Source: an uncultured Acidimicrobiia bacterium (GTDB taxonomy: Bacteria; Actinomycetota; Acidimicrobiia; UBA2766). From it: a DNA stretch of 64,000 bases. The translations under genes were made by a program, and so were the position numbers. The stretch lies in the NCBI GenBank assembly GCA_964370965.1, contig CAYJLW010000010.1:4227-68226 (forward strand), in the 5' to 3' direction. Shown one piece after another: positions 1 through 15,282 of the stretch (position 1 is its first letter; each line of letters begins with the position of its first letter). The notes under the pieces are model-generated. The model did no database searches and was not told where the DNA came from. It worked only from the letters and a program-made list of their open reading frames with translations.

Positions 1-231
1 GTCGAAGGCACCGGCGTGGACGAGACGGTCGAGGATGGACCGGCGCACCTGGGTGCGACGCACGAAGTCCTCCAGGGAGGTGAAAGGCCGCTCTGCCCGG
101 GCACACAGAATCGAGTCGATCTCGGCGGCACTGATGCCGGTGACATCCTGCAGGCCGACACGAATCCCCCACTTCGCGGGAGGGAGCTTGCCCCCTGGAA
201 CGAACATGTGTTCGAGTTTAGCCCGATCCTC
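1..231 (-). pseudogene. dnaE2: C-terminal fragment of DnaE-type polymerase (dnaE2/ImuC tail, HhH region); continues beyond window start
   Basis: Minus-strand frame reads EDRAKLEHMFVPGGKLPPAKWGIRVGLQDVTGISAAEIDSILCARAERPFTSLEDFVRRTQVRRSILDRLVHAGAFD. This matches the conserved DnaE motif that follows the fingers domain (E. coli DnaE: IVYGIGAIKGVGEGPIEAI...FDLCAR...LEKLIMSGAFD). An in-frame TGA at 232-234 sits immediately 5' of it. No RBS. Confidence 0.5.
200..215. promoter_or_regulatory. LexA/SOS-box-like palindrome ACGAAC-ATGT-GTTCGA
   Basis: Matches the actinobacterial SOS box TCGAAC-N4-GTTCGA at 11/12 positions with correct spacing. It lies 44 bp upstream of the DtxR-family start at 260, inside the dnaE2 fragment codons. 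Confidence 0.4.
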
Positions 232-240
232 TCAGGGGGG
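231..240. repeat. direct repeat CTCAGGGGGG (left junction copy)
   Basis: Near-identical to CTCAAGGGGGG at 1865-1875. Contains the TGA (232-234, minus strand) that precedes the dnaE2 C-terminal fragment frame. Confidence 0.5.
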
Positions 241-259
241 CTCTGATACGCTGCGACGC

Positions 260-931
260 ATGTCCGGACCGCGTCGACCGTCGATCGCCCGCGAGGACTA
301 CCTGCAGACCATCCTGCAACTCGACGAGGAGAACACCCCCGTCATCCAGGCCCGTCTCGTGGAGCGTCTCGGGCTCAGCCCCCCGTCGGTCTCCGAGGCC
401 ATCCGCAGCCTCGAAGACGACGGCCTTGTCACCGTGGCGGAACGCAAGCGCATCACCCTCACGGACAGCGGCCGCGTCCTGGCCGAGAAGATCGTCCGCC
501 GGCACCGGGTCGCCGAACGCATCCTCACAGACCTCCTCGGCCTCCCCTGGCACGAAGCGCATCTCGAGGCACACCAACTCGAGCACGGCCTCAGCGACCG
601 TGTCGTCGAGGCCGCGCTCGACGTCCTCGGACATCCCACGACCTGCCCGCACGGCAGCCCGATCCCCGGGAGCGCCTACGTCGCCGGCGCCGGGGTGACC
701 CTCGACACCGTGGCGACGGGTGAAGCGTTCCGCGTGGACATGGTGAGCGAAGAGGTCGAGCACAACCACGACATCCTCCAGTACCTGGGCGAGAACGGGT
801 TCGTCCCCGGCGTCGACGCCGAGGTGACGTCCGTGGCGCCCGACGGCACCCGCAGCGTCGTCGTCGCCGGCCAGACCATCGCCGTGGCCCCGGCCACGAG
901 CCGCCACGTCTTCGTCACGCCGCACCGATAG
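260..931 (+). CDS. DtxR/IdeR/MntR-family metal-dependent transcriptional regulator with C-terminal SH3-like (FeoA-type) domain
   Basis: N-terminal wHTH: IAREDYLQTILQLDEENTPVIQARLVERLGLSPPSVSEAIRSLEDDGLV. Metal-site motifs EAHQLEH and GHPTTCPHGSPIP. C-terminal SH3-like domain. ATG at 260 is the internal M that gives the ~223-aa size typical of the family. Confidence 0.8.
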   Translation: MSGPRRPSIAREDYLQTILQLDEENTPVIQARLVERLGLSPPSVSEAIRSLEDDGLVTVAERKRITLTDSGRVLAEKIVRRHRVAERILTDLLGLPWHEAHLEAHQLEHGLSDRVVEAALDVLGHPTTCPHGSPIPGSAYVAGAGVTLDTVATGEAFRVDMVSEEVEHNHDILQYLGENGFVPGVDAEVTSVAPDGTRSVVVAGQTIAVAPATSRHVFVTPHR

Positions 932-1138
932 ACCCACCGTCCTTCTCGGACTTCCGGGAGTCGGCAATCCGCCGCGTCAGGGCAGATCCCCCCACCAGCG
1001 CACGCGTCAGCCGGGCCGCCCAGCGGACGACGACCTGCCGCGTCAGGGCGGGTTCTGCCCGCCCGGCACTGCCCGGAGGCGGCACGCGGTCGAGCCGGGG
1101 GGTCCGTGGGGAGGAGTTGGCTCCCCCCCACGCTGGGG

Positions 1139-1780
1139 TCAGACTGCGCCGGTTACGGGGAGGCGGTGGGCGAGCATGGCCGTGAGGAGGTCTCCGAGAC
1201 CGGCGAGGAGTACGGAGTCGACGGCCGTCCAACGGTCCTCCGCCGACCTCTCGGCGATCACGATCCCACGCCCGGAGGACCCGATGGCCTGGTATGCGCC
1301 CGCCGAGCGGGCACGGCGGTGCAGCAGCCAACGACGTGTCGCCCGCGCCAGGCCTGTGAACGGCGTTGTGGCCCCGAGGAGCTTGCCTTCCGCGAGCGGC
1401 CCCGCTGCCTCGAGGAGCGGCAGCATCCCCACGGGGGCGGGAGCGCCGCGGCGCAACGACGGTGTCTCGTTGGTGCTCACGGCGAGCTCCACCGTGGGCA
1501 CGCCGCGGCGGGGGAGGATCACGGTGAGCTGGGACATCCGGGCGACGGCGAAATAGGGCGCCGCCGCTGCCCGCAGGATCTCGCTGTCGCGCCCACCGCG
1601 CTCGTGCGCCCGCCAGAGGGAATCGACAGAGACGCGCAGGGTGCGAACCGCCATGTCCGGCTGGACGCCGGCCCAACCCTCCGCCGGGGGCGCCGCCAGG
1701 TGCAGGTTGTTCTCGTAGCCGACCACGATGCGGTCGAGATCCGCCGCCGTCGGCGGTGCGATCCTGGCAAGCGTCTGCAT
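1139..1780 (-). CDS. hypothetical protein (213 aa), no family recognised
   Basis: ATG at 1780 is preceded by GGAAGGGGG 6 nt upstream. Composition looks coding. Lies inside the segment that interrupts dnaE2. Confidence 0.55.
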   Translation of the reverse strand: MQTLARIAPPTAADLDRIVVGYENNLHLAAPPAEGWAGVQPDMAVRTLRVSVDSLWRAHERGGRDSEILRAAAAPYFAVARMSQLTVILPRRGVPTVELAVSTNETPSLRRGAPAPVGMLPLLEAAGPLAEGKLLGATTPFTGLARATRRWLLHRRARSAGAYQAIGSSGRGIVIAERSAEDRWTAVDSVLLAGLGDLLTAMLAHRLPVTGAV

Positions 1781-1864
1781 CCGGTAGCCCCCTTCCGAGC
1801 ACGCGTCTCCTCCCCCATCGGCGGGGTTGTGGGACCGGTTGAGAGATCTCCCGGGAAGCGGATG

Positions 1865-1875
1865 CTCAAGGGGGG
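1865..1875. repeat. direct repeat CTCAAGGGGGG (right junction copy), followed by hairpin GGGGGAG-cgagct-CTCCCCC (1871-1890)
   Basis: Contains the stop codon (1866-1868) of the dnaE2 N-terminal body. Confidence 0.5.
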
Positions 1876-4424
1876 AGCGAGCTCTCCCCCTGATCGCGGA
1901 GCGGTTCCACGCGGTAGGCGGCATCGGAGACGTTGACGTCGAGAGGCAGGACCGCCACACCGCAGCGGCGGGCCTCGTGCACGAACAGCCGCCGCGGATA
2001 CATGCCGGGATCGTGGGTGAGGACACCGGCGAGGAACGCTGCAGGCTCGTGCGTCTTCAGCCAGGCCGACTGGTATGTGGTGACCGCGAACGCCGCCGCA
2101 TGCGCCTTGCAGAAGCCGAAGGAGGCGAAGGAGCGCACCTGGCCCCAGACCGCGGCGGCCTCCGCCGGGGCGATTCCCCGGGCAACCGCCCGGGCCTGAA
2201 GCCACTCGCCGATCTCGACGGTCTCGGGGTCGTCGGGGTCGCCGAGGCGACGGCGGACAGCGTCGGCTTCGGCCTCGCTCACCCCCCCGAGCGCGGCGAT
2301 CGTCCGGATCACCTGCTCGTGGTACACGATGACGCCATGGGTCTCTGACAGGATCGCATCGAGCAGCGGAGACGCGCACTCGACGGGTGCCCCGTGGTGG
2401 CGCTCCACAAACGGGTTCACCATGTCGCTCTTCACGGGCCCGGGCCGGAACAGGGAGATGTCCACGATGAGATGGGGGAACTCGGTGGGCTGGAACTTGC
2501 CCAGCAGCTCCCGCTGGCCGGGACTCTCGATCTGGAAGCAGCCCAGGGTCCGCCCGGAACGGATGAGCTCGAAGGTGGCAGGGTCGTCCCGGGGGACGGC
2601 GTCGACGTCGACCGTCTCGCCCCGCACCCGGGCGACCTCCTCCAGGGCGTGGGCGATCGCCGACTGCATGCGCACCCCGAGCACATCGAGCTTGACGAGA
2701 CCTAGTGCCTCGACGTCGTCCTTGTCGAACTGGGCCATGGGCAGACCTGACGGTGCCCGCTGCAGGGGGACGAGGTCGCGGAAGTCGTCCGGGCCGATGA
2801 GGACCCCGCTGGCGTGCATGGCCAGGTAGCGGGGGAACCCGTCGACCACGGCGCAGCGGGCGAAGAGATCCCGGACGTGGGGGGCGTCGAGGCGCACCCC
2901 CGCGAGCTCGGGCAGTGCCGCGACGGTCTCCTCGATCGCTCCCGCCGACCCGAAGAGCGGGAACTGGCGGGCGATGGTGTCGACCTCGACCTCGGGCAGA
3001 CCGAGGGCCCGACCCACCCCCCGGATCGCTCCCCGCACCCGGTAGGTGGCGACGGCGGCGACCATCGACGTGCGCTCGGCGCCGTAGCTCCGGGCGATCC
3101 ACGCCAGGATGTCGTCGCGGCGAGCGGACTCGACGTCGACGTCGACGTCGGGCAACTCGCTGCGATACTCGTTCAGGAAACGGGCGAAGCTGAGGTCGTG
3201 ATGCACGGGGTCGACGTCGGAGATCCCCAGCAAGTGGGTGACGAGGCTGCCGGCGGCCGAACCCCGACAGGCGCAGCGCACCCCCATGGCTTTGATGCCG
3301 GCGACGATCTCGGCGACGAGGAGGAAGTAGCCGCAGAAGCCGAGCCGGCGGATGACAGCCATCTCCCCGTCGAGACGGGCCCGCACCCCGGCACCGGCGC
3401 CGGGCATGCGCCGGGCGAGGCCTTCCTCACAGGCCTGCTCCAGCGCCACCGCCGGCGGGACGCCGCCACTGGTGCGCACGGGCGGAAGCCGGAACGGCCC
3501 CGTTGCCGGCGGCGGCCCCCCCCCGAGGCGATAGGGGGCATCGTGGCGGATGGTGGGAACGTAGCGGCACTGCTCGGCGAGCGTCAGGCTGGCGTCACAG
3601 ACCCACTCGGCACCGGCGAAGCGACGGCGCATCTCCTGCGGGGAGCACAACTCGCGGCGAGCTCCGCCCCGTCGGGCGGCCACGGCCGTGAGCGGTGCCA
3701 GTTCCCGCATGGCGAGGAGGAGGTCGTGCACCTCGGCGTCCTCCGGCTGGAGGTAGCAGGCGTCGTTGGTCGCCACGACCCGCACCCCGAGACGGCGACC
3801 GAGCGCGAGCACCCGGTCGACACGCGTGGCGCTGTCGGGAAGGAGATGGTGGTGCACCTCGAGGCTGTAGTTCTCCCAGCCGCAGACCTCGACGAAGCGG
3901 CGCACCGTGGCCGTCGCCCGTTCGACGTCGCGCAACCCGAGCCAGCGGCCCACCTCGCCCCGCTCACATCCGGACAGCACGAGAAGACCCTCGGCGTGGC
4001 GGCAGAACGCCTCCCAGGAAACCCCCAGCGAGGGGGCTCCGCCCCTCTCGTCGAGATGCATCTCGCTGAGGAGACGACAGAGGTTGGCGTAGCCGGTGGC
4101 GCTCTGCACGAGGAGGACCGTGTGGCATCCCCGCCGCAACTCGGGCGTGCTGCGGCGATCGGGGGGAAGGGAGGCGCCCTCGGCCTCGGCGGGGTCGGGC
4201 ACACCCGCCGGCGGGGCGATGGGCACCTCGGCGCCGAGTATCGGCCGCACCCCGGCGCCGTGGCAGGCCCGCAGGAACCGGACCATCCCCGCCAGACCGA
4301 GGTGGTCGGTGAGCGCCACCGCAGGCATACCCAGAGCGCCGGCCGCGCTCGCCAGAGCCTCGGGCCGGATGGCGCCGTAACGGAACGAGAAGGACGAGTG
4401 CACATGGAGATGGACGAACGACAT
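1866..4424 (-). pseudogene. dnaE2: error-prone DNA polymerase DnaE2 (ImuC), N-terminal 852 codons (PHP, palm and fingers); ORF ends prematurely at the insertion junction
   Basis: Starts MSFVHLHVHSSFSFRYGAIRPEALASAAGALGMPAVALTDH (PHP domain). Ends ...GVAVLPLDVNVSDAAYRVEPLRDQGESSLPP*. The HhH/OB tail is missing here but is found at 1-231. A LexA box lies 37 bp upstream. Confidence 0.75.
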
Positions 4425-4460
4425 GGCGAACACGAGTAGAGACGGGGAAGTTCTAGGGGC

Positions 4461-4476
4461 TCGAACACTTGTTCGA
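4461..4476. promoter_or_regulatory. LexA SOS box TCGAAC-ACTT-GTTCGA
   Basis: Perfect match to the Gram-positive/actinobacterial SOS-box consensus, 37 bp upstream of the dnaE2 ATG (4424). Confidence 0.8.
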
Positions 4477-4615
4477 GTGCAGACTGACACGCTAACGCCC
4501 CGGCCCCCCGCCGTCAAGAGGTCGCGCCAACAGCGTGAGGAAGCCCATGTCGTCGCCTCCCGCGGGCCGGGCGGAGACGAGAAGAGAGCGCGGGCGGGGC
4601 CTCGACGCGTCGGTC

Positions 4616-6076
4616 TCAGACGGGCGCGTAGGCCGTGTCCCACCAGGGCCGGTCACCGGCGAAGGGAGGTGTCCCGGTGTGCAGGGCCATGCCCCGGTAC
4701 CTGGCCCCGTAGCGACGCGCCAGCTCGGCGTGGGCGGCACGCAGCTCCGTCGCCTCGGCGGCGGTGACGTTGCGTTCGGGGTAGGTGATCACGCCGGCCT
4801 CGCTGACCACGAAGGGCAGGCCGGGCTTGTAGCGGTCCCATCGAGCCACCAACTCCTCCACACGGTTCACGATGTGGGACGCCTTCGGGGAGGGCTCGTT
4901 CATGTACGCGTGCAACTCCAGCGTCTCGACCTGGGGAGCGAGAGCGGCCACCCAGTCCTCGAAGACGAGGTTGCTCGCCACCTTGGAGCGGCCCCCGGTC
5001 TTGCGGGCGAGCACGTCCTTGACGATGCCGTAGAGCTCCGCCATCTTCGCCGTCCCGCCTGTCCAGTAGCCGTTGTCGAGGCCGTACGTGGACCAGTTGA
5101 CCCAGGGCGTGAGGTAGTTGGGCTGGGCGCCCCCGAGGGTGAAGCGCAGGTCCGGCTCGTTCCAGGGCGCCACCGAGATCTGCTCCGCCGGCACGTACAC
5201 GAGGGCGGCGTCGAGGAGGTCTTCGAGGAAGGGCCGGTAGGAGTCGCTCGGGTCCTTGAACCAGAGCCGCATGCTGTCAGCCGCCCAGGCGTCCTTGACG
5301 AGCCCGCCGTTCGGGCACCAGCCGAACAGGGGCGCCGCCGACGTCCCGGCCCAGCACTGCCCGTGCACAAAGAGAGTGATGACGAGTGGGGCGCCGATGT
5401 CACGGATCTTCCGGAAGAAGGGGGCGTAGGCGGACCAGTCGACACGGGCCCGGCCGTTGGGCATGTAGCGGTCGATCGACACGAGCCAGCGCACGACCCC
5501 CGGGCGGGCCGTGTCGAGCTTGGGGACCACAGACAGGTCGTGAGCGGGATCGGCGTTCATGTCGTATATCGCCCAGCCGGTGGGAGCGGTGTCCGGCCCC
5601 GAGGGCGGGGGGGGCGGGGGCGGGGGCGACGACATCGTGCCCGCCGCGACCGTGACCGTGGTCGAAGACGACACCGCCTCCCCGCGGTTGTCCGTGACGG
5701 TAAGGCTCACGGAGTATGCGCCCGGGACGTTGAAGAAGTGCGCCGCGGTGGCGCCCGACGCCATGGTGCCGTCGCCGAAGGCCCAGGCGTACGTGAGCAC
5801 GTACCCGTCCGGGTCCCGCGACCCGGAGGCGTCGAAGCGGACCTGCAGGGGGGCGATCCCGCTCGTGGCGGAAGCGGTGAACACCGCCGAGGGCTCCCGG
5901 TTGGGGCGACTCGTGGGCCGGGAGGCGAGGTGGGCCTCACCGGGAGCGGCGACGACGGTCATGCCGGCGGCGAAGACGGTCGCCACCACGGCCAGGGCCA
6001 CGAGGGCCCGGCCGGAGCGCCGGCGATGCGCGCGGCGCGCGAGGTGTCGGTCTGTGACGTAGGGGTGCGACGGCAT
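4616..6076 (-). CDS. secreted/anchored glycoside hydrolase-like protein: signal anchor - PKD domain - poly-Pro linker - catalytic domain with GH5-type NEP motif
   Basis: PKD-like: PLQVRFDASGSRDPDGYVLTYAWAFGDGT...YSVSLTVTDNRG. PPPPPPPP linker. ISVAPWNEPDL motif. N-terminal hydrophobic anchor. Confidence 0.6.
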   Translation of the reverse strand: MPSHPYVTDRHLARRAHRRRSGRALVALAVVATVFAAGMTVVAAPGEAHLASRPTSRPNREPSAVFTASATSGIAPLQVRFDASGSRDPDGYVLTYAWAFGDGTMASGATAAHFFNVPGAYSVSLTVTDNRGEAVSSSTTVTVAAGTMSSPPPPPPPPSGPDTAPTGWAIYDMNADPAHDLSVVPKLDTARPGVVRWLVSIDRYMPNGRARVDWSAYAPFFRKIRDIGAPLVITLFVHGQCWAGTSAAPLFGWCPNGGLVKDAWAADSMRLWFKDPSDSYRPFLEDLLDAALVYVPAEQISVAPWNEPDLRFTLGGAQPNYLTPWVNWSTYGLDNGYWTGGTAKMAELYGIVKDVLARKTGGRSKVASNLVFEDWVAALAPQVETLELHAYMNEPSPKASHIVNRVEELVARWDRYKPGLPFVVSEAGVITYPERNVTAAEATELRAAHAELARRYGARYRGMALHTGTPPFAGDRPWWDTAYAPV

Positions 6077-6186
6077 TTCCCCGTTCTTCGACCGTCACCG
6101 CCCCCGAACTTGATCAAGGGGGCCTCAACAGCAAGATAACCGAGCAGATCGGGCAAAACGGGCCAATCAGGACAGGATCCCGGCAC

Positions 6187-6543
6187 CTACACGACGATGC
6201 CCGCGCTGCCGTCGTCGCGCGTCACGCAAAAGCCTGCGGACTCCCATGCGAGCATGCCCCCCGTGACATTGACGGCTTCGGTGCCCGCCTCCAGGAGCAG
6301 GGCCGTGGCCTTCGCGGAACGCGCGCCCACCCGGCAGACGACGACGTACGCCGCGTCGCGAGCAAGCTCACCCCGGCGGCTCGTGAACTCGCTCAGGGGG
6401 AGATGCCGTGCCCCGGGGGCGTGCCCGGCGTCCCACTCGTGGCGCTCACGCACGTCGAGCAGCACATGGCCGACTCCGACGCGCTCCACGGCCTCGGCGA
6501 CGTCGACCTCCGGGACGGGTGGCCGCCCTCCTGGATCGACCAC
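6187..6543 (-). CDS. rhodanese-domain sulfurtransferase
   Basis: VLLDVRERHEWDAGHAPGARHLP...VVVCRVGARSAKA...GGMLAW. Start probably GTG near 6543, right after the acs stop. Confidence 0.7.
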   Translation of the reverse strand: MVDPGGRPPVPEVDVAEAVERVGVGHVLLDVRERHEWDAGHAPGARHLPLSEFTSRRGELARDAAYVVVCRVGARSAKATALLLEAGTEAVNVTGGMLAWESAGFCVTRDDGSAGIVV

Positions 6544-6550
6544 CGCCGTC

Positions 6551-8551
6551 TCAGTCCCCCTGGGCGCCGGAGCCGGCCCGGTCACGGATCTCGGTCACGA
6601 CGTCCACGTTGGCGAGCGTGGTGACGTCGCCCAGCTTGCGGTTCTCGGAGATGTCCCGCAGAAGGCGGCGCATGATCTTGCCCGAGCGGGTCTTCGGGAG
6701 GTCGTCGGTGAACACGATCGATTTCGGCTTCGCGATCGGGCCGATCTTCCCGGCAACGTGGCGGCGAAGCTCGTCGAGGAGAGCGCCGTCGCCCTCGACA
6801 CCCCCCCGCAGAGTGACGAAGGCGGCGATCGCCTGGCCGGTGTGGTCGTCAGCCCGGCCCACCACGGCCGCCTCGGCCACGGCGTGGTGATCGACGAGGG
6901 CGGACTCGACCTCGGTGGTGGAGATGCGGTGCCCCGAGACGTTCATGACGTCGTCGACGCGGCCCAAGAGCCAGAAGTAGCCCTCCTCGTCTCGCTTGGC
7001 GCCGTCGCCGGCGAAGTACATCCCCGGGAAGCGGCTCCAGTAGGTCTCCTGGTACCGCTCCGGGTCGCCGTAGATGCCGCGCAGCATCGCCGGCCACGGC
7101 TTCTTGAGAACGAGGTAGCCGCCGCCACCCAGAGGCACGGGCCTGCCCTCGTCGTCGACGACGTCGGCGTCCACACCCGGGAAGGGAAATGTCGCGGAGC
7201 CCGGCTTCAGCGTGGTGAGCCCCGGGAGGGGCGTGATCAGGATCATGCCCGTCTCGGTCTGCCACCAGGTGTCCACGACAGGCGTGCGCCCGCCCCCGAT
7301 CGTGTCCCGGTACCACGTCCAGGCCTCGGGGTTGATGGGCTCACCCACGGAACCGAGGAGCCGCAGGGACGAGAGGTCGTGGCGGCCCGGGAAGTCGTCG
7401 CCCCACCGCATGAACGTGCGGATCGCCGTGGGCGCGCAGTACAGGATGCTCACTTTGTAGCGCTCGATGACGTCCCACCAACGGTCCTTGTCCGGGTGGT
7501 CGGGGGTGCCCTCGTACATGACGCTCGTGGCGCCGTTCGCCAGCGGGCCGTAGACGATGTAGCTGTGGCCGGTCACCCATCCCACGTCCGCGGCGCACCA
7601 GAAGACGTCGTCGTCCTTCAGGTCGAAGATCATGCGGTGGGTGACGGCCGTACCCACCATGTAGCCCCCGGTCGTGTGCAGGATGCCCTTGGGCTTGGCG
7701 GTGGTCCCGGACGTGTAGAGGAGATACGCCATGTGCTCGCTGTCGAGAGGAACGGCCGGGCACTCCGGGCTCTGGCGCTCGACGACGTCGTGCCACCACA
7801 CGTCGCGCTCGTCGTCCCAGGCGACGTCCTGGCCGGTGCGGCGCACGACGAGGACCCGTTCGACGGTCTCGGTGGCCGAGACCGCCTCGTCGGCAGCGGG
7901 CTTCAGGCCCATGACCTGGCCCCGGCGCCAACCCCCGTCGGCGGTGACGAGAGCCTTGGCCCCGGAGTCGTGGATCCTGTCCGCGAGCGCCTCGGCGGAG
8001 AAGCCGCCGAAGACCACGGTGTGCGGGGCGCCGATCCGGGCACAGGCGAGCATGGCCACGACGATCTCGGGGATCATCGGCATGTAGATCGCCACCCGGT
8101 CACCCGTCGCGACACCGAGTTCCTTGAGGGCGTTGGCCGCCCGGCACACCTCGGCATGCAGTTCGGCATAGGTGATCGTGCGGGTGTCGCCGGGCTCACC
8201 CTCCCAGTGGTATGCGACCCGCTCGCCCAGACCCGCCTCGACGTGACGGTCGAGGCAGTTGTAGGCGAGGTTCGTCTTGCCCCCCACGAACCACTTAGCG
8301 AAAGGGATGTCCCACTCGAGCACGGCGTCCCAGGGTTCGAACCAGTGGAAGCCCTCCGCCTCGCGGCCCCAGAAGCCCTCGAGGTCCTCTCGCGCCTCCT
8401 CGTAGACGTCGCCGCCACGCACGTTGGCCTGCGCCGCGAACGCAGGGGGTGGCGGGAACCTACGCCCCTCCTCAAAGAGGTTCTCGATCGCCTCGTGGGC
8501 CTCGTCTGGCATCTGCTCCCCCTGAACCGGCGGCGGCGTCTTGGCGGGCAT
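6551..8551 (-). CDS. acs: acetyl-CoA synthetase (AMP-forming)
   Basis: Full-length Acs signatures: YTSGTTAKPKG, WWQTETG, SGHRISTTEVESAL, PKTRSGKIMRR. Confidence 0.9.
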   Translation of the reverse strand: MPAKTPPPVQGEQMPDEAHEAIENLFEEGRRFPPPPAFAAQANVRGGDVYEEAREDLEGFWGREAEGFHWFEPWDAVLEWDIPFAKWFVGGKTNLAYNCLDRHVEAGLGERVAYHWEGEPGDTRTITYAELHAEVCRAANALKELGVATGDRVAIYMPMIPEIVVAMLACARIGAPHTVVFGGFSAEALADRIHDSGAKALVTADGGWRRGQVMGLKPAADEAVSATETVERVLVVRRTGQDVAWDDERDVWWHDVVERQSPECPAVPLDSEHMAYLLYTSGTTAKPKGILHTTGGYMVGTAVTHRMIFDLKDDDVFWCAADVGWVTGHSYIVYGPLANGATSVMYEGTPDHPDKDRWWDVIERYKVSILYCAPTAIRTFMRWGDDFPGRHDLSSLRLLGSVGEPINPEAWTWYRDTIGGGRTPVVDTWWQTETGMILITPLPGLTTLKPGSATFPFPGVDADVVDDEGRPVPLGGGGYLVLKKPWPAMLRGIYGDPERYQETYWSRFPGMYFAGDGAKRDEEGYFWLLGRVDDVMNVSGHRISTTEVESALVDHHAVAEAAVVGRADDHTGQAIAAFVTLRGGVEGDGALLDELRRHVAGKIGPIAKPKSIVFTDDLPKTRSGKIMRRLLRDISENRKLGDVTTLANVDVVTEIRDRAGSGAQGD

Positions 8552-10182: not shown

Positions 10183-10887
10183 CTACGCCAGGCGCAAGAG
10201 GTGGAAGGCCTCGGCGTGAGCGAGTCCGGCGGCACGGCCCGTCTCGGCGGCCCGGGCGGGGAGCCACTCGGCGAACATGTCCCCGCCTTCGTCCAACTGG
10301 CTCCCGTGGCAGGCGATCGCCGCCACCTTGACCTCGAGGGTGTCGGTGACGTCCACGAAGGCGGTGGGCTCGAGGGTCCCCGACAGCAGCACGGCCGGAG
10401 TGGCGTGCGGGGGACCGCCCCGTCCGGGGTAGTAGTGGGCGTTGGGCGCCGCCCACGCCACGGCGTCCAGCGCGGCGGAACCCGTCACGCGGTGGTCGCG
10501 GTGATTCACGTACCCGTCACCGAAGACGAGCGCGCTGGGGTCCGGGCAGCACACCACGTCGGGCCGCACCGACCGCACGACCTCGACGATCTCCCCGATG
10601 AGCGCGGGGCCGGCGTCGATCTCGCCGTCGGCGTGACCGAGGCGGGTCGTACCCACGACACCGAGGATCTCCGCGGCTGCCAGCGTCTCCGCCCAGCGCA
10701 GGTCGGCGAGGTCCGCGGGCCCCAAACCGGCCGGCCCCGCGCCCTTGTCGCCGTTCGTGACGAGACAGACGTGCACTCGGGCCCCCGCACCTGCCCAGCG
10801 GGCCAGAGAAGCCCCGCAGGCGATCTCGGTGTCGTCGGGGTGGGCGTAGACGGCCAGGACCGCGCCCGGCGTGCCGTCGAAGATCAC
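10183..10887 (-). CDS. PIG-L/LmbE-family N-acetylglucosaminyl deacetylase
   Basis: AVYAHPDDTEIACGASLARWAGAG...VHVCLVTNGDKG. The start is a GTG that overlaps the pfkA stop. Confidence 0.7.
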   Translation of the reverse strand: MIFDGTPGAVLAVYAHPDDTEIACGASLARWAGAGARVHVCLVTNGDKGAGPAGLGPADLADLRWAETLAAAEILGVVGTTRLGHADGEIDAGPALIGEIVEVVRSVRPDVVCCPDPSALVFGDGYVNHRDHRVTGSAALDAVAWAAPNAHYYPGRGGPPHATPAVLLSGTLEPTAFVDVTDTLEVKVAAIACHGSQLDEGGDMFAEWLPARAAETGRAAGLAHAEAFHLLRLA

Positions 10888-10891
10888 GCCG

Positions 10892-11920
10892 TCATCCGAA
10901 GAACGTGCGGGCCAGCGCCCAGAGGTCGTCGTCGACTGTCTTGAGCGTGCCCACGGCCTCCTCCAGCGGGACCCTGACGATGTCGCCGCAGCGCAACGCC
11001 ACCATCTGGCCCCACGCTCCGGCATCGACGGCCTCGACCGCGGCGACGCCGAAACGGCTGGCGAGGAAACGGTCGAACGCCGTCGGGGTTCCTCCCCGTT
11101 GCACGTGACCCAGGATCGTCACGCGGGTCTCGTATCCGGTGCGCTCCTCGATCTCCCCCGCGATGACGTTGCCGATGCCGCCGAGTCGGACGTGACCGAA
11201 CTGGTCGGTGCCGGCCTCGGCGAGCGCCAGCGTCCCTTCCACGGGGGTGGCACCCTCGGCGATCACGACGATCGAGAACAGGGCGCCGTGCAGGTGCCGA
11301 TGACGGATGTGGCTGCACACCTCCTCGATGTCGAAGGGACGCTCCGGGACGATGATGACGTCCCCTCCCCCGGCGACCCCCGACCAGAGGGCGATCCAGC
11401 CGGCGTGGCGGCCCATGACCTCCACGACCATCACGCGGTCGTGGGACTCCGCCGTGGTGTGCAGCCGGTCGATCGCCTCCGTGGCGACCTGCACCGCAGT
11501 GTCGAAGCCGAACGTGAGCTCGGTGCCGGAGAGGTCGTTGTCGATGGTCTTCGGCACACCGACCACATGGACGCCGTCGCCGGCGAGCTTCGCGGCGACG
11601 CCGAGGGTGTCCTCGCCGCCGACGGCGATGAGGGCCTCGAGGTCGGCCACCTCGAGCTGGGAACGCACGCGCCCGAGACCGTCGGGCTCCCCGAGGGGAT
11701 TGGTGCGGCTCGTACCCAGGATGGTCCCCCCCCGGTGCAGGATGCCCCTGGTGTTCTCGAGCGTGAGCTCGTAGAAGTCGCCGTCGAGCACACCCCGCCA
11801 GCCATGGCGGAAGCCGAAGATGCGGTGGCCCTCCTGGCGGATCCCCTTGCGGGTGATCGCCCGGACAACCGCGTTGAGACCCGGGCAGTCGCCTCCGCCC
11901 GTGAGCACTCCGATGCGCAT
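10892..11920 (-). CDS. pfkA: ATP-dependent 6-phosphofructokinase
   Basis: MRIGVLTGGGDCPGLNAVVRA...GGEDTLGVA...MGRHAGWIAL. RBS GGGGGAGGG. Confidence 0.9.
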   Translation of the reverse strand: MRIGVLTGGGDCPGLNAVVRAITRKGIRQEGHRIFGFRHGWRGVLDGDFYELTLENTRGILHRGGTILGTSRTNPLGEPDGLGRVRSQLEVADLEALIAVGGEDTLGVAAKLAGDGVHVVGVPKTIDNDLSGTELTFGFDTAVQVATEAIDRLHTTAESHDRVMVVEVMGRHAGWIALWSGVAGGGDVIIVPERPFDIEEVCSHIRHRHLHGALFSIVVIAEGATPVEGTLALAEAGTDQFGHVRLGGIGNVIAGEIEERTGYETRVTILGHVQRGGTPTAFDRFLASRFGVAAVEAVDAGAWGQMVALRCGDIVRVPLEEAVGTLKTVDDDLWALARTFFG

Positions 11921-13478: not shown

Positions 13479-14384
13479 TCAGTCCAGCGGGGTCACGTTG
13501 CGGGTGCGGCGCCCGAAGCTCTGGCACCAGGCCTCGCTCTCGTGCCAGATGTCGACGCGATTCCCCCTGATGGCCCCGCCGGTGTCCTCGGCAGTGAAAG
13601 TGCCGAGGCCCTCGATCTGGAAGTGGGAGCGCAGCGGGATCACGGCCGGGTCCACCGCTGCCGTCCCCGCGTGCGGCTTCGTGCCCGTGGCGGTGCTCCC
13701 GCCCCCCGAGTAGCAGGTGACCACGAAGGCGCTCCCGGTGCCGCCGGGCGGGGAGGCGCTCTGTGCGGGGGACGGCGCGGCCGCCGTGCGCGCCGCCGGC
13801 GCTGGGCCCGATGTGGCGGCCGGGGGGGTCGTGGTGGACGCCGCCGCCATGGCCCGCACGAGGAGACGGCGCTGCTCGGCCTGGCCACTCGCGAGATCAC
13901 GACGCGAGGTCTCCAGCTGGGAGAGACGCTGCGTCTCGCTCCTCTCGAGATCCGCGAGGCGGGCCCGTGCGATCTCGGCGTCCTCGACGGCGCCACGCAG
14001 GGCGTCGAGGCCGGCCTCCTGGCGCCGCGTCACGGAAGACGCGTAGCTCACGCGCAGGGCGAGGTCGTCGGGGCTCTCCGAGAGCAGCACCATGGCGAAG
14101 TAGTGGTCACCGCCGTGCTTGTAGGCGTCGACGGCCAGGGAACGCACGACGGCGGCGGACTCCTGTCGCCGCCGTCGGGCAGACGCGAGCTCCGATTCCG
14201 ACCTCTCACGCGCCGCCCTCACGCGGGCAAGGCGCCCACGGGTCTCCTCCAGGTCGCCCACGACGCCGGCGAGACGGCGGTCGATCTCCGCGAGCCGATC
14301 CCGCGGGGATGCGGCCGCGACGGGCACCCCGGGGAGGAGCCCGAGAGCGAGGGTGGCGAGCAGGAGCGCGGCGGTACGTCGCAT
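13479..14384 (-). CDS. secreted coiled-coil protein with C-terminal 3D (MltA-like) domain, probable cell-wall remodelling factor
   Basis: Signal peptide MRRTAALLLATLALGLL. Long coiled coil. C-terminal 3D motif GTAAVDPAVIPLRS...EDTGGAIRGNRVDIW. Confidence 0.65.
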   Translation of the reverse strand: MRRTAALLLATLALGLLPGVPVAAASPRDRLAEIDRRLAGVVGDLEETRGRLARVRAARERSESELASARRRRQESAAVVRSLAVDAYKHGGDHYFAMVLLSESPDDLALRVSYASSVTRRQEAGLDALRGAVEDAEIARARLADLERSETQRLSQLETSRRDLASGQAEQRRLLVRAMAAASTTTPPAATSGPAPAARTAAAPSPAQSASPPGGTGSAFVVTCYSGGGSTATGTKPHAGTAAVDPAVIPLRSHFQIEGLGTFTAEDTGGAIRGNRVDIWHESEAWCQSFGRRTRNVTPLD

Positions 14385-14487
14385 GGGAAGGGGGGGCACA
14401 AGAAAGCCCGCATACGTTGCGGGCCGGGGCAAACCCTAGCAACCCCGCCCGGCCATGGTCCACATGCACGGAGCCGCGCCCCCCGGG

Positions 14488-15282
14488 CTATGCAGCCGCG
14501 CGGGCCGTCTTCGCCTCCGGCGCCCCGGGCGGGGCCCCGTCGGCGCTCCGGCTGGCATAGCGGTCGGTGTACTCCTGGCCCGAGAGCTGCGCTATCTCGT
14601 ACATGAGCTCGTCGACGAGGGCGCGGCACGCCCGTCGCTGGTCCGGCCAGCTCCGGTACTTGTCGACGTCGACCGGTGTGCCGAAACGGACCAGGAGAGG
14701 CTTGCGCAGCCGTGGCATCGTCCGCCCCTTGGGCTGGATGTCACGGCTGCCCACGATGCCCACCGGGACGAGAGGCGCTCCGGTCTCGAGGGCGAGACGG
14801 GCGACCCCGGTGCGTCCCCGGTGGAGGCGGCCGTCGGGAGAGCGGGTGCCCTCGGGGTAGATGCCGAACAGGCCACCGTGGAGGAGGACCTCCTTGGCCG
14901 CCATGAGCGCCCCCTGGCTGGCGTCACCGCCCTCGCGCCGGATCGGGATCTGACCCACGCCCGTGAAGAACCACCGCGTCTTCCACGAATCGAAGTACTC
15001 CGCCTTCGCCACGTACGTCACGCGCCGGCGCAGCAGGGACGGCAGAAACAGGGAATCGAGGAAGGCGAGGTGGTTCGCCGCCAGGATCGCCGGCCCCCTC
15101 TGGGGGACGTTCTCGATGCCCTCCACACGCGTGGGCCACAGCGCCCGCAGGATCGGGGTCAGGATCGCCTTCATGATCCAGTAGAACACGGCCCCCTGCG
15201 TCTCCTCTTGGCCTGCCCCATGTCGGGGCCCGTCACGAACCGGGCGTAGACTCCCACCGTAGCCGTTCCGGAACCACTGCAT
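14488..15282 (-). CDS. plsC: 1-acyl-sn-glycerol-3-phosphate acyltransferase
   Basis: AANHLAFLDS (HxxxxD variant), FTGVGQIPIRR, GIYPEGTRS. Start is uncertain; an alternative ATG is at 15174. Confidence 0.7.
   Translation of the reverse strand: MQWFRNGYGGSLRPVRDGPRHGAGQEETQGAVFYWIMKAILTPILRALWPTRVEGIENVPQRGPAILAANHLAFLDSLFLPSLLRRRVTYVAKAEYFDSWKTRWFFTGVGQIPIRREGGDASQGALMAAKEVLLHGGLFGIYPEGTRSPDGRLHRGRTGVARLALETGAPLVPVGIVGSRDIQPKGRTMPRLRKPLLVRFGTPVDVDKYRSWPDQRRACRALVDELMYEIAQLSGQEYTDRYASRSADGAPPGAPEAKTARAAA

Follow-up and report, generated by a model that had tools for sequence, protein, structure and literature searches.

In work that Wu et al. reportedly published in 1998, cyanobacterial DnaE is split into dnaE-n and dnaE-c, the two parts being joined by a split intein. 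In split-intein DnaE the N-intein spans about 100 amino acids (aa) or more, and the C-intein about 35 aa ending in HN and followed by C, S or T. Kelman et al. are said to have found in 1999 that PolB of Methanothermobacter thermautotrophicus is encoded in two genes without an intein. Surveys of C-family polymerases mention only the intein-split cyanobacterial DnaE and sporadic frameshift fragments, which are rejoined (PMC3919608). DnaE2-PolY modules without ImuA or ImuB have also been described, for example DnaE2-DinB2 of Streptomyces coelicolor and DnaE2-PolY2 of Bacteroidetes (PMC6511836; PMC12926913). Little is yet understood of how non-replicative DnaE2 is recruited and assembled with its partners of the Y family (PMC10421592, PMC6511836, PMC12926913). 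Here we describe a locus at the start of a 64,000-nucleotide (nt) stretch of DNA, hereafter the window, from an uncultured Acidimicrobiia bacterium (GenBank assembly GCA_964370965.1, contig CAYJLW010000010.1). A dnaE2-like gene is present there as two separate genes, which we call the N-half and the C-half, and the C-half leads into a gene for a Y-family polymerase (PolY). The reading we favour, with a probability of roughly 0.72, is an ancient fission at a hypervariable loop that gave rise to a LexA-co-regulated, two-polypeptide DnaE2-like polymerase.

The original prediction for this stretch held that a dnaE2 gene is split, and this proved correct: an 852-aa open reading frame (ORF) stops at a TGA, and a later DnaE block lies in a separate frame (231..1) with an HHH_6 match. 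The two genes are as follows.

4424..1866, minus strand: dnaE2 N-half, 852 aa, with Pfam PHP (PF02811), DNA_pol3_alpha/palm-thumb (PF07733) and DNA_pol3_finger (PF17657), together the catalytic core
207..1, minus strand: first 69 codons of the dnaE2 C-half (MFVPGGKLPPAKWGIRVGL..), extending beyond the window start, HHH_6 at E = 5.7e-15

The N-half ends in ...LPLDVNVSDAAYRVEPLRDQGESSLPP followed by TGA at 1868-1866, 11 residues past YRVE, and this stop falls in the linker that follows LPLDVNVS..YRVE. The next DnaE block (WGIRVGL.., HhH domain) is found 1.66 kb downstream of the N-half, at 207..1. The minus-strand frame 231..1 that contains it has an in-frame TGA directly before it at 234-232, and the C-half ORF reads MFVPGGKLPPAKWGIRVGLQDVTGIS... 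from the ATG at 207-205 before exiting at the window start. The complete C-half, read from locus L001 at 14218-15114, is 298 aa long (308 aa in some contigs), carries HHH_6 (PF14579) and OB (PF01336) domains, and ends with a WHAGGGSAG motif. Its stop overlaps the PolY start by 4 nt; PolY is a 403-aa Y-family polymerase (L001 15111-16322), followed by a GFO/IDH/MocA oxidoreductase gene in contigs that reach past the window start. Over the two genes the DnaE-type domain order is complete: PHP, Pol3-alpha, fingers, HhH and OB.

The split is conserved across a clade of relatives. A search with the N-half returned seven clusters at 60-61% identity (P0122-P0127) and P0128 (L004, 51%). These eight N-halves lack HHH_6 and OB and terminate between a few and about 40 residues past ..DVNxS..VE. 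The other relatives, some 110 with no more than 52% identity, have full-length proteins (~1010-1310 aa, apart from a few shorter contig-end partials) with both domains. The eight form an exclusive group in a neighbour-joining (NJ) tree, where bootstrap support is 83/100 for the core clade by itself and 100/100 when L004 is included. When the C-half was searched, the best matches were eleven clusters of standalone proteins, 280-332 aa long and 52-71% identical to it. The gene orders of the split loci are listed below, with spacer meaning the DNA between the two halves and ORFan an orphan ORF described further on.

Window: N-half, ORFan, dtxR, C-half, and PolY beyond the window start; spacer 1.66 kb
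L081 (GCA_020850945.1, Acidimicrobiia): N-half (858 aa), dtxR (reversed), DUF6777, C-half, PolY; spacer ~1.8 kb
L084 (GCA_046331095.1): N-half (871 aa), PNPOx, dtxR, APH, M24, ABC1, Ank, C-half (284 aa), PolY, GFO, DUF3040, TgpA; spacer 5.4 kb
L082 (Logan SRR10823763): N-half (838 aa), 76-aa ORF, dtxR, M24, two ORFs, GGDEF-EAL, Ank, DMFA2_C, C-half (297 aa), PolY, GFO; spacer 7.9 kb
L086 (Logan SRR22388054): dtxR (reversed), C-half, PolY
L004 (Acidimicrobiia SLM_MC1B_68-O05): N-half stop, 7 nt, C-half start; no spacer gene

Spacer length ranges from 7 nt to 7.9 kb, gene content differs from locus to locus, and dtxR is the only gene in common. Split and unsplit-type loci (e.g., L088) share their flanks, with PolY-DUF3040-TgpA-DUF58 on one side; acs lies upstream in split loci. 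Because the flanks match, the halves sit at the ancestral locus, and varied DNA has accumulated between them.

A chimeric contig or a frameshift error would also produce a broken gene, and some long-read-style assemblies do fragment dnaE2 (L089 in three pieces, L088 with an ATGA overlap by G-runs). However, at least 24 contigs (36 index blocks) carry the exact 852-aa protein, with identical nucleotides and arrangement over several samples and over several ENA, Logan and NCBI assemblies. Independent metagenome-assembled genomes (MAGs) from NCBI and Logan share the architecture, and two complete genes stand between the halves. We rejected misassembly, and regard an assembly or sequencing artefact as barely credible at all. 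L001, L002, L003 and the window are nucleotide-identical over the N-half, the ORFan and dtxR. The first three are also identical over PolY and the C-half, save for the copy number of a 30-nt in-frame tandem repeat in the C-half that encodes QRQLRSHVTE, between HhH and OB (L001 ~14480-14560), with 2 copies in L001 and L002, 3 in L003 and 1 in L086. Since these loci are identical apart from that repeat, a strain-level ratio of nonsynonymous to synonymous substitution (dN/dS) cannot be calculated.

The original prediction had gone further and read the split as a 1.6-kb insertion between 10/11-bp direct repeats. In the form weighed here, the model has the 1.6 kb arriving recently, as a cassette whose mobility is left open, and the repeats as a target-site duplication. 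The features on which this bears are the two proposed repeat copies and the two genes of the spacer.

231..240, plus strand: proposed repeat copy 1, CTCAGGGGGG, inside the 52-bp divergent promoter region of dtxR and the C-half, with no sign of a junction
1865..1875, plus strand: proposed repeat copy 2, CTCAAGGGGGG, spanning the last codons and stop of the N-half, a chance-level match
1780..1139, minus strand: spacer gene 1, the ORFan, 213 aa, specific to the window lineage
260..931, plus strand: spacer gene 2, a DtxR/IdeR/MntR-family metalloregulator (dtxR), 223 aa, with Fe_dep_repress, Fe_dep_repr_C and FeoA domains

Both repeat strings are present at the two frame ends, together with the TGAs, and DNA was certainly inserted at some time in the past, given that flanking synteny on both sides is ancestral. 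That much of the claim stands; a discrete, repeat-bounded insertion does not. Local alignment of the two 40-nt junction windows gives a score of 8, and of 4000 random window pairs with the same spacing 10.9% score at least 8 (p ~0.11), which places the repeat at chance level; the window holds 110 G6/C6 runs. The repeat is not kept in L086, the closest relative with sequence there (C-half 71% identical), where the copy reads CCTCCCTGAG. The spacer has no transposase or integrase, as had been stated and as domain searches bore out; among PHROG families there was no match for the ORFan and only weak helix-turn-helix (HTH) matches for dtxR, and the spacer's codon usage is native. The single-copy empty site expected of such an insertion is not what relatives show: L081, L082 and L084 carry differing spacers instead, and L004 has none. 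Orthologues end naturally in the same linker and have the C-block as a separate gene, as in L081, L082, L084 and L086 with spacers that vary in length and content and in L004 with no spacer; this is an outcome that the original prediction had itself named as refuting it. We rejected both insertion of a transposable element or cassette with target-site duplication and a phage or mobile origin of the spacer, and we hold the recent-insertion model to be extremely improbable.

The two spacer genes differ in distribution. The ORFan has the codon-position G+C of genuine coding sequence (GC1/2/3 = 0.75/0.57/0.86; the window as a whole has 71% G+C), gave zero Pfam, NCBIfam or PHROG matches, and found only itself, both among 5.8e9 clustered proteins and when 1.84e9 representatives were searched exhaustively with phmmer; it is missing from the spacers of L081, L082 and L084. 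The dtxR gene, transcribed divergently from the C-half, is the sole spacer gene common to the whole core clade (L081, L082, L084, L086).

Each half has its own LexA operator. We sought perfect matches to the actinobacterial-type LexA box, CGAACN4GTTCG, across the 64-kb window and found 2, one per half, versus 0.09 expected; none of 100 shuffles reached 2.

4462..4475, no strand assigned: LexA box CGAACACTTGTTCG, 38 nt upstream of the N-half start codon
201..214, no strand assigned: LexA box CGAACATGTGTTCG, overlapping the C-half start codon (ATG 207-205)
215..220, minus strand: -10-like hexamer TAAACT (TANNNT), 7 nt upstream of the A of the C-half ATG

The first of these agrees with the original description of the gene as SOS-regulated. 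Perfect boxes lie upstream of the N-halves of L001, L081, L084 and L004, and the position of the window's N-half box is likewise occupied in L081, L084, L004 and L006. Every separated C-half (L001, L081, L082, L084 and L086) has a perfect box of its own, and L004, in which the halves adjoin, has a single box. LexA/SOS regulation, as expected of DnaE2/ImuC, is thereby predicted from boxes at both halves and in all relatives examined. The layout of a TANNNT hexamer, 7 nt and a start codon within the box is repeated at the C-half of L086, the N-half of L081 and the start of the unsplit dnaE2 of L006, and the spacing of hexamer, box and ATG at the C-half suggests a leaderless transcript.

This layout also accounts for the linker through which the two frames had been proposed to rejoin. 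Since the starts in L006, L081 and L086 are built in the same way, the supposed linker is operator, promoter and start codon: the codons EDRAKLEHMFV correspond to the LexA box at 201-214 plus the ATG (207-205) and are not former coding sequence. The N-terminal extension miscalled in P0122, which reads ..IEHMFVHLH.., has the same cause. In the C-half of L081, an in-frame ATG 6 nt past the box (7929) recovers a GIRLGL block that is lost with the called TTG start.

Several further observations concern these promoters. The start codons of dtxR and the C-half lie on opposite strands 52 nt apart (208-259), and each is preceded at a distance of 7 nt by a TANNNT hexamer, TACGCT at dtxR and TAAACT at the C-half, which suggests back-to-back leaderless promoters; with such an arrangement, the LexA box might act on dtxR too. 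The first codons of the L086 C-half (ATGTTCGCTCGCGATGG, 825-841) nearly equal the intact L006 dnaE2 start (GTGTTCGCTCGCGAAGG, 7983-7999) beyond the LexA box. We considered whether the C-half promoter derives from a duplicated dnaE2 5' end and set this aside as too weak, the L086/L006 match (10 of 11 nt past the box) being single and absent in other pairs. More perfect LexA boxes occur nearby in L001 (18645-18658) and L081 (409-422): genes for a DNA methylase and a DUF3040 protein flank one of them, and the other overlaps the ATG of a 97-aa ORF (no Pfam match) upstream of acs.

Both halves are under purifying selection. Every half examined is an intact ORF, and the palm motifs LPDVDVDVE and VKLDVLGVR (general form LPDxDxDVE and VKLDxLGVR), which we take to hold the counterparts of the Escherichia coli palm aspartates D401, D403 and D555, are present in the N-halves of the window, L081, L084 and L004. 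Of the C-halves, only that of L004 has lost the C-terminal WHxSxGSxG motif. Pairwise dN/dS (Nei-Gojobori) was 0.27-0.41 for the N-half. For the C-half it was 0.26-0.53 in most pairs, with pairs involving L004 at 0.15-0.33 and the least saturated pair (dS 0.46) at 0.35; PolY gave 0.25-0.35 and dtxR 0.17-0.54. These values are rough because the proportion of synonymous differences (pS) is 0.5-0.8 and synonymous sites are partly saturated. We also compared identity in the C-region with identity in the N-region among 104 intact relatives, whose 5356 pairs gave a slope of 1.04 and a residual standard deviation of 0.037. Ten split-split pairs fell on this intact-protein regression line, with residuals from -0.021 to +0.048, and the detached C-module shows no sign of relaxed constraint.

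These results bear on the possibility that the two pieces are remnants of a dnaE2 destroyed by insertion and now decaying. The interruption of the gene, the ORFan in the spacer and the loss of the terminal motif from the L004 C-half would all suit a pseudogene. Yet the split is old, both pieces staying open across lineages only 54-63% identical to the window; their dN/dS of about 0.3 equals that of the neighbouring dtxR and PolY; the catalytic motifs are intact; a perfect 14-bp LexA palindrome stands at every separated C-half; and the C-half rate is not accelerated. We consider decay very unlikely. Like misassembly and recent mobile insertion, it runs counter to several independent results.

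The cut falls between domains. Alignments to PDB structures place N-half residue 833 at residue 819 of E. coli alpha and C-half residue 17 at 833, so that the cut falls within the loop, near residues 825-831 of E. coli Pol III alpha, at the Pfam boundary between fingers and HHH_6. A coincidence with the crystallisation boundary of E. coli alpha(1-917) was considered and rejected on the same alignments. The loop differs greatly in length among 65 intact relatives, its flanking motifs lying 10 to 172 residues apart (median 37). An AlphaFold2 (AF2) model of the intact relative P0144 (predicted local distance difference test, pLDDT, 84.5; predicted template modelling score, pTM, 0.85) places one strand at 828-832 (..YRVE) and another at 846-850 (..GIR), on either side of a coil modelled with lower confidence, which is consistent with the flanking strands forming a hairpin that might re-pair in trans. 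The junction peptides, 11 residues after the last block of the N-half and 13 before the next block of the C-half, are unconserved. With peptides of just this length protein splicing is impossible here, and an intein or trans-splicing was rejected, as the peptides are too short and unconserved and no intein blocks are present.

We next characterized the family to which the two genes belong. Against the NCBIfam error-prone DNA polymerase model NF004225 (cutoff 939 bits) the N-half scored 577 and the C-half 109, both below the cutoff, and against the DnaE1 model NF004226 they scored 644 and 102 bits. Nor do intact relatives reach either cutoff, and their scores on the two models are nearly the same, 762-826 for DnaE2 and 770-829 for DnaE1. 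The label "DnaE2" rests on context and source annotations, JGI naming the relatives "error-prone DNA polymerase"; by sequence, the group is best described as divergent DnaE2-like. The tau-binding C-terminal domain is absent, the C-half ending at about residue 1074 of E. coli alpha (DnaE1-profile position 1063/1146), and the tail RFWHAGGGSAG aligns with intact relatives. Beyond uncultured Actinomycetota and Acidimicrobiia relatives, the nearest named homologues are Streptomyces proteins at 42-46% identity. The downstream PolY scored 392.9 bits against the Pol IV model NF003015 (cutoff 367) and has DMDAFYASVE and SLDEAF, from which we classify it as a predicted active-type DinB, not ImuB; its C-terminal QLSFD and AVRARFGDTAV resemble, by eye, clamp-binding and RecA-NT motifs. 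In two intact relatives, L005 and L007, PolY likewise comes directly after dnaE2. Neither imuA nor imuB was found within 10 kb on either side in L001, L081, L082 and L084. The absence of a tau-binding domain, the LexA boxes and the adjacency of PolY liken the locus to published DnaE2-PolY modules (PMC6511836; PMC12926913 "DnaE2B").

Taken together, these results lead us to the following proposal. The ancestor of the Acidimicrobiia clade would have carried an operon of LexA box, dnaE2-like gene and PolY, and in that ancestor fission would have occurred in the hypervariable surface loop between fingers and the HhH (beta-binding) domain. At the time of fission the halves may have adjoined as in L004, though L004 itself may be secondary or a late frameshift. 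Insertion of dtxR, then of other genes, would have followed, with a LexA-box promoter gained or retained before the C-half and PolY. The catalytic core (PHP, palm, thumb and fingers; 852 aa) would keep the original SOS promoter, and the HhH-OB module (298 aa) would stay joined to the PolY gene, with a LexA promoter of its own where genes intervene. DNA damage would lead to LexA cleavage and de-repression of both units together. The two polypeptides would most likely reassemble non-covalently, possibly via the beta-strands flanking the loop, and the core, HhH-OB and co-translated PolY would make up a translesion or mutagenic polymerase complex. We infer co-induction, leaderless transcription, physical assembly and activity from the arrangement of the locus. 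Tentatively, and with more doubt than belief, we suggest that fission may have been selected and not just tolerated, HhH-OB serving as a LexA-timed subunit that bridges or switches the core and PolY within a three-polypeptide mutasome.

The halves may instead have sub-functionalised without reassembly, the N-half acting as a polymerase alone and HhH-OB either as an accessory DNA-binding subunit of PolY or as a separate DNA-binding protein induced in the SOS response. In favour of this, translational coupling ties the C-half to PolY in the window, L082 and L084, the peptides at the junction show no conservation, and the two halves have independent promoters. However, the C-half evolves in lock-step with the N-half, as in fused proteins, it retains the DnaE2-specific C-terminal motif, and the halves are always at one locus under the same operator type. 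That the C-module serves PolY rather than the core is the main live alternative, and we judge it unlikely.

Some points weigh against a reassembling two-polypeptide polymerase of ancient origin. Because N-half tails and C-half heads are unconserved, there would be no dedicated docking element, and the binding of the halves to each other, like their expression, is something we infer. The tree support comes from NJ only, the dN/dS values are rough for the reason given above, and the DnaE2 label leans on context. L004 also raises doubt. The terminal WHxSxGSxG motif is missing from its C-half (10516-11322), no PolY gene lies downstream, and removing one A of an AAA run would fuse both ORFs. For these reasons the adjoining split of L004 could be a late frameshift or decay and not ancestral, and its C-half may be degenerating or working differently.

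Other broken dnaE2 genes were also seen. L087, outside the clade (50% identity), has an 859-aa dnaE2 N-part (P0131; 3112-5691) with the same linker terminus, followed directly by an mraZ-rsmH-PBP-murE cluster with no C-half nearby and preceded by a LexA-boxed DUF6504 gene; this could be an independent truncation or fission. In the long-read-style metagenome ERZ25039586, the L088 dnaE2 is broken at the same linker, the ATGA overlap by G-runs lying at 5990-6010, and the three pieces of the L089 relative occupy 3815-7068. These breaks are probably homopolymer errors and call for caution when counting splits in such data. We did not accept P0035/L088 and P0026/L089 as extra independent splits, as they are ambiguous or erroneous and come from an assembly with dnaE2 in three pieces.

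The rest of the window (8000-64000) looks like ordinary chromosome, with genes for Lon protease, a type II/IV secretion ATPase, a branched-chain ABC transporter, a CoA-transferase, acyl-CoA synthetases and an aminotransferase; no imuA or imuB was found among the ORFs sampled from it. Rfam gave zero matches across the whole 64-kb window, and a sigma-70/terminator consensus scan was uninformative, with 0 promoters and 1 terminator (0.9 terminators expected).

The locus is of use in several ways. The natural cut between the catalytic core and HhH-OB offers a ready-made construct boundary. Both parts are under selection and have the same repressor, and the second is tied to PolY, which leads to the testable idea that the C-module may contact the partner. 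The locus is also a clean case of operator gain following gene fission. For annotation, calls of ~850-aa "DNA polymerase III alpha" and ~290-aa "OB-fold" or "hypothetical" proteins in Acidimicrobiia MAGs are a pair, not assembly errors. If fission was indeed selected, these genomes would be a natural dissection of how Y-family partners recruit DnaE2-type polymerases, with DNA/clamp engagement as the detachable part.

No new insertion mechanism is involved, and in the literature searched, coverage of which was incomplete, we found no description of a conserved non-intein dnaE2 split. As in the cyanobacterial split DnaE, a C-family alpha subunit comes from two separate genes, but here there is no intein, the split site is different, the enzyme is of the translesion type and not a replicase, and the halves lie at one locus. 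As in PolB of M. thermautotrophicus, gene fission leaves a polymerase in two polypeptides that would need to associate non-covalently; that enzyme, however, is a B-family polymerase from another domain of life, is not SOS-regulated and has no duplicated operator. The locus is also like the DnaE2-PolY modules, in which a LexA-controlled, non-replicative DnaE polymerase without a tau-binding domain is encoded beside a Y-family gene. Those polymerases are one polypeptide of ~1100 aa, whereas here there are two genes with two operators, and the Y-family partner, inactive in Streptomyces, looks catalytically active here. Finally, the locus resembles the frameshift-fragmented PolIII-alpha genes of earlier surveys (PMC3919608) in having a dnaE-type gene in pieces, but unlike those, which are treated as errors or one-offs, this split is clade-wide, has whole genes between the pieces, is maintained under purifying selection and gives the second piece a regulatory site of its own.

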